A stretch of 49,062 nucleotides of DNA from a virus (taxonomy: Duplodnaviria; Heunggongvirae; Uroviricota; Caudoviricetes), in the IMG/VR virus record IMGVR_UViG_2917891409_000001, positions 1 through 49,062 of that record, one strand, 5' to 3'. Made by a program: the position numbers and the translations under genes. Of the stretch, positions 42,170 through 45,569 are shown in pieces (position 1 is the first letter of the stretch; every line of letters starts with the position of its first letter). The notes under the pieces were generated by a model. It worked only from the letters and a program-made list of their open reading frames with translations. It searched no databases and was not told where the DNA came from.

Positions 42170-44692
42170 ATGGGTAAAGGCAGCAGTAAGGGGCATACCC
42201 CGCGCGAAGCGAAGGACAACCTGAAATCCACGCAGTTACTGAGTGTGATCGATGCCATCAGCGAAGGGCCGATAGAAGGTCCGGTGGATGGATTAAAAAG
42301 CGTGCTGCTGAACAGTACACCGGTGCTGGACAGTGAGGGGAATACCAACATCGCCGGTGTCACGGTGGTGTTCCGGGCAGGTGAGCAGGAGCAGACACCG
42401 CCGGAGGGTTTTGAATCCTCCGGATCCGAGACGGTGCTGGGTACGGAAGTGAAATATGACACGCCGATCACCCGGACCATCACGTCTGCAAACATCGACC
42501 GTCTGCGCTTTACCTTCGGTGTGCAGGCTCTGGTGGAAACCACTTCAAAGGGGGACCGGAATCCGTCGGAAGTCCGCCTGCTGGTTCAGATACAGCGTAA
42601 CGGTGGCTGGGTGACGGAAAAAGACATCACCATTAAGGGCAAAACCACCTCGCAGTATCTGGCCTCGGTGGTGGTGGGTAACCTGCCGCCGCGCCCGTTT
42701 AATATCCGGATGCGCAGGATGACGCCGGACAGCACCACAGACCAGCTGCAGAACAAAACGCTCTGGTCGTCATACACCGAAATCATCGATGTGAAACAGT
42801 GCTACCCGAACACGGCACTGGTCGGCGTGCAGGTGGACTCGGAACAGTTCGGCAGCCAGCAGGTGAGCCGTAATTATCATCTTCGCGGGCGCATTCTGCA
42901 GGTGCCGTCGAACTATAACCCGCAGACGCGGCAATACAGCGGTATCTGGGACGGAACGTTTAAGCCAGCATACAGCAACAACATGGCCTGGTGTCTGTGG
43001 GATATGCTGACCCACCCGCGCTACGGCATGGGGAAACGTCTTGGTGCGGCGGATGTGGACAAATGGGCGCTGTATGTCATCGGCCAGTATTGCGACCAGT
43101 CGGTGCCAGACGGTTTTGGCGGCACAGAACCGCGCATCACCTGTAATGCTTACCTGACCACACAGCGTAAGGCGTGGGATGTGCTCAGCGATTTCTGCTC
43201 GGCGATGCGCTGTATGCCGGTATGGAACGGACAGACGCTGACGTTCGTGCAGGACCGACCGTCGGATAAGGTGTGGACCTATAACCGCAGTAATGTGGTG
43301 ATGCCGGATGATGGCGCGCCGTTCCGCTACAGCTTCAGCGCCCTGAAGGACCGCCATAATGCCGTTGAGGTGAACTGGATTGACCCGAATAACGGCTGGG
43401 AGACGGCGACAGAGCTTGTGGAGGACACGCAGGCCATTCTCCGTTACGGTCGTAACGTCACGAAGATGGATGCTTTTGGCTGTACCAGCCGGGGGCAGGC
43501 ACACCGCGCCGGGCTGTGGCTGATTAAAACGGAGCTGCTGGAAACGCAGACCGTGGACTTCAGCGTGGGCGCAGAAGGGCTTCGCCATGTACCGGGCGAT
43601 GTCATTGAAATCTGCGATGATGACTATGCGGGTATCAGCATCGGCGGGCGCGTGCTGGCGGTGAACAGCCAGACGCGGACACTGACGCTCGACCGTGAAA
43701 TCACGCTGCCATCCTCCGGTACCACGCTGATAAGCCTGGTTGACGGAAGTGGCAATCCGGTGAGCGTGGAGGTCCAGTCCGTCACCGACGGCGTGAAGGT
43801 GAAAGTGAGCCGGGTTCCTGACGGCGTTGCCGAGTACAGCGTGTGGGGGCTGAAGCTGCCGACGCTGCGCCAGCGCCTGTTCCGCTGTGTGAGTATCCGT
43901 GAGAACGATGACGGTACGTATGCCATCACTGCCGTGCAGCATGTACCGGAGAAAGAAGCCATCGTGGATAACGGGGCGCACTTTGACGGTGACCAGAGCG
44001 GCACGGTGAATGGTGTCACACCGCCAGCAGTGCAGCATCTGACTGCAGAAGTCACCGCAGACAGCGGGGAATACCAGGTGCTGGCGCGCTGGGATACGCC
44101 GAAGGTGGTGAAGGGGGTGAGCTTTATGCTTCGTCTGACCGTGGCAGCGGATGACGGCAGTGAGCGGCTGGTAAGCACGGCCCGGACGACGGAAACCACA
44201 TACCGCTTCACGCAACTGGCGCTGGGAAACTACAGGCTGACAGTCCGGGCGGCAAATGCCTGGGGACAGCAGGGCGATCCGGCATCGGTATCGTTCCGGA
44301 TTGCCGCGCCTGCAGCACCGTCGCGGATTGAGCTGACGCCGGGCTATTTTCAGATAACCGCAACGCCGCATCTTGCGGTTTATGATCCGACGGTACAGTT
44401 TGAGTTCTGGTTCTCGGAAAAGCGGATTGCGGATATCAGGCAGGTTGAAACCAGCGCGCGTTATCTTGGTACGGCGCTGTACTGGATAGCTGCCAGTATC
44501 AATATCAAGCCGGGCCATGATTATTATTTTTATATCCGCAGTGTGAATACTGTTGGCAAATCGGCATTCGTGGAGGCTGTCGGTCGGGCGAGCGATGATG
44601 CGGAAGGTTACCTGGATTTTTTCAAAGGCCAGATAATCGAATCCCATCTCGGCAAGGAGCTGCTGGAAAAAAGTCGACCTGACGGAGGATAA
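42170..44692 (+). CDS. J: central tail fibre / host specificity protein J, N-terminal 840 codons (gene interrupted by +1 at A6 run 44667-44672)
   Basis: [26 protein letters not shown]... as lambda gpJ; ends ...[11 protein letters not shown] where the +1 frame reads [16 protein letters not shown]. Confidence 0.9.
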
Positions 44693-44753
44693 CGCCAGCA
44701 GACTGGATCAGTTTTCCAAAGAGTGGAAAGACGCCAACGATAAATGGAATGCC

Positions 44754-45569
44754 ATGTGGGGCGTCAAAATTGAGCAGACCGAAGACGGCAGGCATTATGT
44801 CGCGGGGCTTGGCCTCAGCATGGAGGATACGGAGGAAGGCAAACTGAGCCAGTTCCTGGTTGCCGCTAACCGTATCGCGTTTATTGACCCGGCAAACGGG
44901 AATGAAACGCCGATGTTTGTGGCGCAGGGCAACCAGATATTCATGAACGAAGTGTTCCTGAAGTATCTGACGGCGCCAACCATTACCAGCGGCGGCAATC
45001 CGCCGGTATTTTCCCTGACACCGGACGGGCGGCTGACGGCGAAAAATGCCGATATCAGCGGTAACGTGAATGCGAACTCCGGAACGCTCAATAATGTCAC
45101 GATTAACCAGAACTGTCAGATTCTGGGAAAACTGTCTGCCAACCAGATTGAAGGTGATATTGTCAAAACGGTGGGAAAAGCCTTTCCGAGAAATAGCAGT
45201 TATGCCAGCGGTACAATAACGGTCACGGTGTACGATGACCAGGCTTTTGACCGTCAGATAGTAATCCCACCCGTTCTGTTTCGCGGTGGTAAGCATGAAA
45301 ACTTCAACAGCAACAACCAACAGTCATACTGGTATTCAACCTGTAAGCTGCAGGTGCTGAAGAACGGACAGGAAATCTTTCAGCAACCCGCGACGGATGT
45401 CAGCAGGGTATTTTCATCCGTCATTGATATGCCTGCCGGACACGGTCATGTCACCCTGACTTTCAATGTTTCTTCATATGGTGCTAATAACTGGACGCCA
45501 ACGACCAGTATCAGCGACCTTCTTGTTGTCGTGATGAAGAAATCAACAGCCGGTATCAGTATCAGTTGA
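44754..45569 (+). CDS. J: J C-terminal receptor-binding portion (continuation in +1 frame)
   Basis: frame open upstream to the A-run; matches lambda J C-terminal region. Confidence 0.8.

Follow-up and report, generated by a model that had tools for sequence, protein, structure and literature searches.

The apparent split of a lambda-type J gene in the Escherichia sp. E2586 draft genome is most likely a homopolymer over-call

The gene for the lambda-type tip attachment protein J is divided into two open reading frames (ORFs) in the deposited sequence of a lambdoid prophage from Escherichia sp. E2586. This split is real in the deposited file and most likely not in the organism. We consider it very probable that J is intact in E2586 and that the run of six A's (A6) at the break is a homopolymer over-call in an Ion Torrent draft consensus. 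Five A's (A5) stand at this position in three other assemblies of this prophage, and the deposited sequence carries nine further run extensions without any substitution, so that the split is most likely an artefact of sequencing and assembly. The stretch of DNA that was analysed, hereafter the window, is a 49,062-nucleotide virus record that corresponds to contig PDIH01000072.1 of assembly GCA_004745335.1, and the stretches of this contig that were compared match it at 100%. It was assigned to this contig through exact matches of neighbouring proteins (ybhC, lom, terminase A, O and a 221-aa ORF), which also led to contigs from other datasets with the same prophage. The project PDIH00000000 belongs to Escherichia sp. 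[quoted passage not shown]

A lambda-type J gene in two reading frames

An earlier note, based on the letters of the window, had described a gene J split at an A6 run into ORFs of 840 and 271 amino acids. Both ORFs were found again in the ORF listing (Table 1), and the alignment of J with its closest phage relative, Lambda_4C10, contains one single-base gap, A5 against A6, confirming the extra A as the cause of the split. The junction DNA at the A6 run reads ctgctggAAAAAAgtcgacc, and the wider sequence across the frame change is ctgctggAAAAAAgtcgacctgacggaggataa. The frame changes after codon 834, where the second Ig domain meets the tail-tip fibre. In the +1 frame, the 271-aa ORF starts from the first available ATG, 62 nt downstream of the stop codon of the 840-aa ORF. 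Removal of one A from the A6 run produces a J ORF of 1132 aa without an internal stop, in agreement with the expectation of the note that an A5 tract would give a contiguous J of about 1130 aa. Such a single continuous ORF is absent from the deposited sequence and is present in three sister assemblies. Likewise, the full-length matches in the phage collection all have 3399 bases against the 3400 bases of our query.

The two pieces jointly hold the complete series of gpJ domains, and the split is therefore not a chance pattern of ORFs. By Pfam, the 840-aa piece comprises FNIII-A_GpJ, Phage-tail_3, Ig_J and Ig_J_second, and the piece in the +1 frame comprises Phage_Tail_Tip and Ig_GpJ_C, the C-terminal receptor-binding domain, whereas the intact sister J protein has all six on one chain. 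The C-terminal piece matched the gpJ chains 9wca, 8xcj and 8iyk in the PDB, the best solved match being 'A8 gpJ 713' (9wca, E-value of 6e-176, compared with 1e-124 for lambda J). After correction, J is 89.7% identical to lambda J overall, with 97-99% identity for residues 1-834 and 88% for residues 835-985. The full domain series and this identity bear out the assignment of the gene as a lambda-type J. The receptor-binding domain of residues 986-1132 (window 45125-45569) is divergent from that of lambda, with an ungapped identity of about 20% for a pair that is out of register. Thus, the +1 frame does continue J into the receptor-binding domain, as had been proposed, but the domain is not of lambda's own type. 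Because the receptor-binding domain is of a non-lambda type, the phage may, judged from its sequence, use a receptor other than LamB.

The corrected protein has the same length (1132 aa) and the same order of Pfam domains as lambda gpJ (NP_040600, PDB 8iyk), from which it differs in the receptor-binding domain; lambda gpJ also has A5 without the extra A of the deposited sequence. The prophage shares the gene order H-M-L-K-I-J-lom-stf with lambda, with J after I and before lom, and it adjoins ybhC on the lambda attB side with a lambda-type integrase. The closest phage record is the J gene of Escherichia virus Lambda_4C10 / phage 4A7, which is 96.7% identical at the nucleotide level along its whole length and shares 1111 of the 1132 residues of the corrected J. 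Unlike the deposited sequence, it has A5 at the site and a continuous coding sequence of 3399 nt. No exact protein match was found for the 840-aa, 271-aa or 787-aa ORF. The NCBI annotation of the contig has no J protein and gives the tail-fibre gene another start.

Downstream of J, the 787-aa tail-fibre gene contains a 155-bp direct repeat (91% identity) encoding a repeated AAKTSETNAK... segment. It is directly followed by an IS-type transposase with an rve domain, and the contig, like the window, stops within this transposase. The sister contigs are interrupted there too. The window thus lacks the gene for tail-fibre assembly and the right prophage end.

Table 1. Coordinates of the J gene pieces, the extended runs, the spans shared with sister assemblies and other features of the window
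Feature	Positions	Strand	Remark
J gene (tip attachment protein / central tail fibre)	42170..45569	+	3400 nt here, 3399 nt in all relatives
N-terminal J fragment	42170..44692	+	840 aa; 834 native codons, then six out-of-frame codons (SRPDGG), then TAA (44690-44692)
Open +1 frame with the rest of J	44637..45569	+	tail-tip fibre and C-terminal receptor-binding domain
C-terminal J ORF	44754..45569	+	271 aa; starts at the first ATG of the +1 frame (44754)
Extended run in J	44667..44672	+	A6; A5 in lambda, Lambda_4C10 and three sister assemblies
Extended run, intergenic	6749..6753		extra C (C5 vs C4)
Extended run in TraR/DksA-like gene	7910..7915	-	extra base (T6 on + strand vs T5)
Extended run in cI-like repressor	13634..13639	-	extra base (T6 on + strand vs T5); splits the gene, HTH parted from S24 peptidase
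Extended run just upstream of repressor start	13783..13787		extra base (T5 vs T4)
Extended run in antiterminator Q	23319..23324	+	extra A (A6 vs A5); splits the gene
Extended run	26418..26421		extra T (T4 vs T3); absent from three other assemblies
Two extended runs, D-E intergenic region	32803..32824		two extra T's (two T8 runs vs T7)
Extended run in tail gene L	40220..40222	+	extra T (T3 vs T2, adjoining a T6 run); splits the gene
L021, SRR8835202	1-4720		and 2.7 kb of host flank; 0 substitutions, no one-base differences
L048, SRR6148324	5683-16763		0 substitutions; four extra bases in window (6749, 7910, 13634, 13783)
L033, SRR8835202	21439-39326		0 substitutions; four extra bases in window (23319, 26418, 32803, 32817)
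L034 (SRR8061821) and L035 (SRR6148324)	parts of the other spans		0 substitutions; agree with L033 at all overlaps
L027, Logan assembly of SRR8835202	35635-48724		0 substitutions; extra T 40220 (L) and extra A 44667 (J) in window
L028, GCA_005781105.1	35635-48715		0 substitutions; extra T 40220 (L) and extra A 44667 (J) in window
L029, Logan assembly of SRR6148324	41565-48724		0 substitutions; extra A in J in window; own indel at 46447
217-aa ORF between ybhC and ybhJ	1-701		no Pfam match
Invasin_D4 ORF	4810-5454	-	
Invasin_D4 ORF	17817-18581	-	
Invasin_D4 ORF	20319-21044	-	
Direct repeat in tail-fibre gene, copy 1	46835-46989		155 bp, 91% identity between copies
Direct repeat in tail-fibre gene, copy 2	47024-47178		
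IS-type transposase (rve domain)	48703-49062	-	contig and window end inside it

Ten extended runs relative to sister assemblies

We compared the window with the assemblies from four other datasets that contain the same prophage; the comparison extends over about 43 kb altogether, and J is covered by three of the assemblies (Table 1). Over these 43 kb, we found ten single-base differences, each of which is an insertion in the window lengthening an existing run, and neither substitutions nor deletions in the window relative to the sister assemblies. The run lengths in the window at the ten sites are 5, 6, 6, 5, 6, 4, 8, 8, 3 and 6. Over the 13 kb shared with L027 and L028, for example, there is no substitution, and the two one-base gaps fall in L and J. 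A5 was found in J in all three assemblies covering it (L027, L028 and L029), one of which was probably assembled anew from the reads of E2586 itself. The corrected J of 1132 aa is identical to J of these three assemblies, and the corrected L is identical to L of the sister assemblies. At the left end, 7.4 kb (window 1-4720 and the host flank) is the same in the window contig and in SRR8835202, so the density of errors is uneven; about 1.6 differences would be expected there at the observed rate, and the absence of any is compatible with this expectation.

Five of the ten sites break genes, namely the TraR/DksA-like gene, the cI-like repressor, antiterminator Q, tail gene L and J. In the NCBI annotation of the contig, these five genes are either absent or truncated, whereas the sister contigs have them intact. 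The cI-like repressor has 161 aa on the NCBI contig against 230 aa in the sister assembly, Q is uncalled against a protein of 229 aa, and no L protein is called on the contig against an intact L of 232 aa in the sister assemblies.

SRR6148324 is probably E2586's own run, as judged from accession-number offsets: pairing SRX3260344 (E2586) with SRR6148324 fits the offset between SRX3260348 and SRR6148328 (strain E3356, PDIE), and the PDIE assembly and the SRR6148328 contigs of E3356 have the same sequence variant. The re-assembly of SRR6148324 has A5 in J and different indels elsewhere, as would be expected when noisy reads pass through different assemblers, and we infer that the reads themselves favour A5. 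SRR8835202 and GCA_005781105.1 could come from close relatives rather than from the same isolate as E2586. The literature search on the accessions VATN and SRR8835202 and on other uses of strain E2586 found nothing further.

We also looked for the A6 run in larger collections. A 24-nt J motif with A6 had no match in 2.9 million viral contigs or in 241 million metagenome records, whereas at least 120 viral contigs contain the 24-nt motif with A5. When 60 nt with the A6 run at their centre served as the query, 1,936 places were aligned across 1,534 complete E. coli genomes, none of them an exact match; the best matches have 59 of the 60 bases with one gap, which corresponds to A5. Lambda itself has A5 at this site. 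None of the complete E. coli genomes contains an identical copy, the best match being 96.8% identical; the host of the prophage is a cryptic-clade Escherichia. Every relative examined has A5 and a continuous J, and the two-frame arrangement with A6 is not conserved among homologues.

The A5 motif of J also occurred in 18 species-representative genomes, 17 of which (L002-L016, L018 and L019) are unrelated bacteria, including Neobacillus, Kitasatospora, Bradyrhizobium, Pseudomonas, Shewanella and Paenibacillus, among others. The contigs concerned in these 17 genomes are 99.7-100% identical to phage lambda, and the names of several record a coverage of about 1x. This looks like contamination of public draft assemblies with lambda DNA. 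The source genome of the window was not recovered with this motif.

Sequencing error, mutation or recoding as the origin of the sixth A

The E2586 draft was produced from single-end Ion Torrent reads at 45x coverage, assembled with MIRA and SPAdes and finished by hand (PMC6639607). Ion Torrent data have a high indel error rate, with an overall error of 1.78% and miscounted run lengths (PMC3431227). Differences from the sisters that are exclusively indels, exclusively insertions and exclusively run extensions, on a flow-based platform, are the signature of run-length miscalls and not of mutation. Neither independent sequencing nor re-assembly of what are presumably the same or closely related strains (L027, L028 and L029) reproduces the extra A. 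Flow chemistry takes the length of a run from the strength of the signal, and in the proposed mechanism A5 would thereby be recorded as A6; the over-called A would then shift the frame after codon 834 and create the apparent ORFs of 840 and 271 aa. The true product would be a J protein of 1132 aa made up of an N-terminal baseplate-hub part, two Ig/FN3 domains, the tail-tip fibre and a C-terminal receptor-binding domain of the non-lambda type. With 5,232 CDS in 5.09 Mb, E2586 has the second-highest CDS density among 16 Ion Torrent genomes (PMC6639607), which is consistent with split genes. One point against this reading is the direction of the differences: Quail et al. illustrate mainly deletions in PGM reads (PMC3431227), whereas all ten differences in the window are insertions. 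This insertion-only direction may stem from the merging step of MIRA and SPAdes. One-directional run miscalls that produce false frameshift 'pseudogenes' have been documented for the PacBio genome of Clostridium autoethanogenum, in which single-base run differences likewise split genes and the false frameshifts likewise vanished in independent sequencing (PMC4687164). That case differs from ours in that PacBio under-called the runs, giving deletions, whereas the runs here would be over-called in an Ion Torrent draft assembled by MIRA and SPAdes (PMC4687164).

Alternatively, the extra A could be a real and very recent +1 slippage mutation in E2586, as part of ordinary prophage decay; J would then be truncated after residue 834, and adsorption-competent tails would not be made. 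The deposited consensus does read A6, the contig lacks an NCBI J protein as would fit a pseudogene call, and tail-gene frameshifts are common in resident lambdoid prophages. We nevertheless regard this origin as unlikely. Among spontaneous mutations, substitutions greatly outnumber indels, whereas the comparison over about 43 kb gave no substitution against ten one-base insertions. A5 is present in the three other assemblies of this prophage, the platform was Ion Torrent, and A6 was found nowhere else among the viral, metagenome and complete E. coli sets. In addition, the repressor, Q, L and the TraR-like gene would all have been inactivated at once by the same pattern. A stably maintained prophage that lacked a working repressor, Q, L and J yet showed no substitution would be odd, and we judge it unlikely. 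A stronger version, in which all ten run extensions are real and a single episode of homopolymer insertions, free of substitutions, silenced the prophage by hitting the repressor, Q, L and J, appears very improbable. If true, such an episode would represent an unusual mutational signature, for instance of a transient slippage-prone state of replication on the prophage, and slippage at A6 might still yield some residual J of full length. A mismatch-repair mutator was rejected as a source of the insertions: mutator strains of this kind also accumulate many transitions, and none were seen.

The A6 run could also have a function, either through programmed recoding (a ribosomal +1/-2 frameshift or transcriptional slippage) or through separate translation of the 271-aa piece, resulting in a functional J in two parts or two isoforms. 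The run does fall on a domain boundary, with the second Ig domain on one side and the tail-tip fibre on the other, and an ATG is present 62 nt past the stop. We rate a programmed or split J as very unlikely, and its lack of conservation already comes close to refuting it. Six A's are fewer than the run lengths known for efficient slippage, every relative has A5 with a continuous gene, A6 is absent from all the collections scanned, and sister prophages that are otherwise 100% identical have the unsplit gene. The ATG at 44754 lies inside the Phage_Tail_Tip domain, as the Pfam match begins at profile position 19, and it is preceded only by a 3-nt GGA within a conserved coding sequence of the intact genes. 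Independent translation of the C-terminal piece was accordingly rejected, given the lack of a real Shine-Dalgarno sequence, the position of the ATG within a domain and the presence of the same sequence in intact genes.

If the over-call is accepted as the best explanation, the split of J has little biological importance, and its value is one of curation. The apparent pseudogenes in the E2586 draft, and probably those in the 15 other genomes of the project, are not evidence of prophage decay or of a loss of host range. Cases of this kind can be settled without laboratory experiments by a comparison of near-identical assemblies. Were the frameshift real, the prophage would merely be one more defective lambdoid prophage with an ordinary frameshift.

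Host flank and cargo genes

The host gene ybhJ, to the left of the window (about 14480-14530 of the flanking sequence L020), has a 1-bp deletion in a CT repeat relative to E. coli and is not called by NCBI. The E2586 assembly shares this deletion with the Logan assembly of SRR8835202. Either ybhJ is a real pseudogene of the lineage, or both assemblies contain the same systematic error. We considered the uncalled ybhJ as a sign of genome-wide errors and rejected it, the deletion being shared with an independent assembly and lying in a CT repeat. Between ybhC and ybhJ, the first bases of the window encode a 217-aa ORF (Table 1). Complete E. coli genomes have no near-identical counterpart at this position, their match to the window beginning at 702, and the ORF may be specific to the cryptic clade. 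Within the prophage, three ORFs on the minus strand contain Invasin_D4 domains and appear to be cargo that the phage has acquired.
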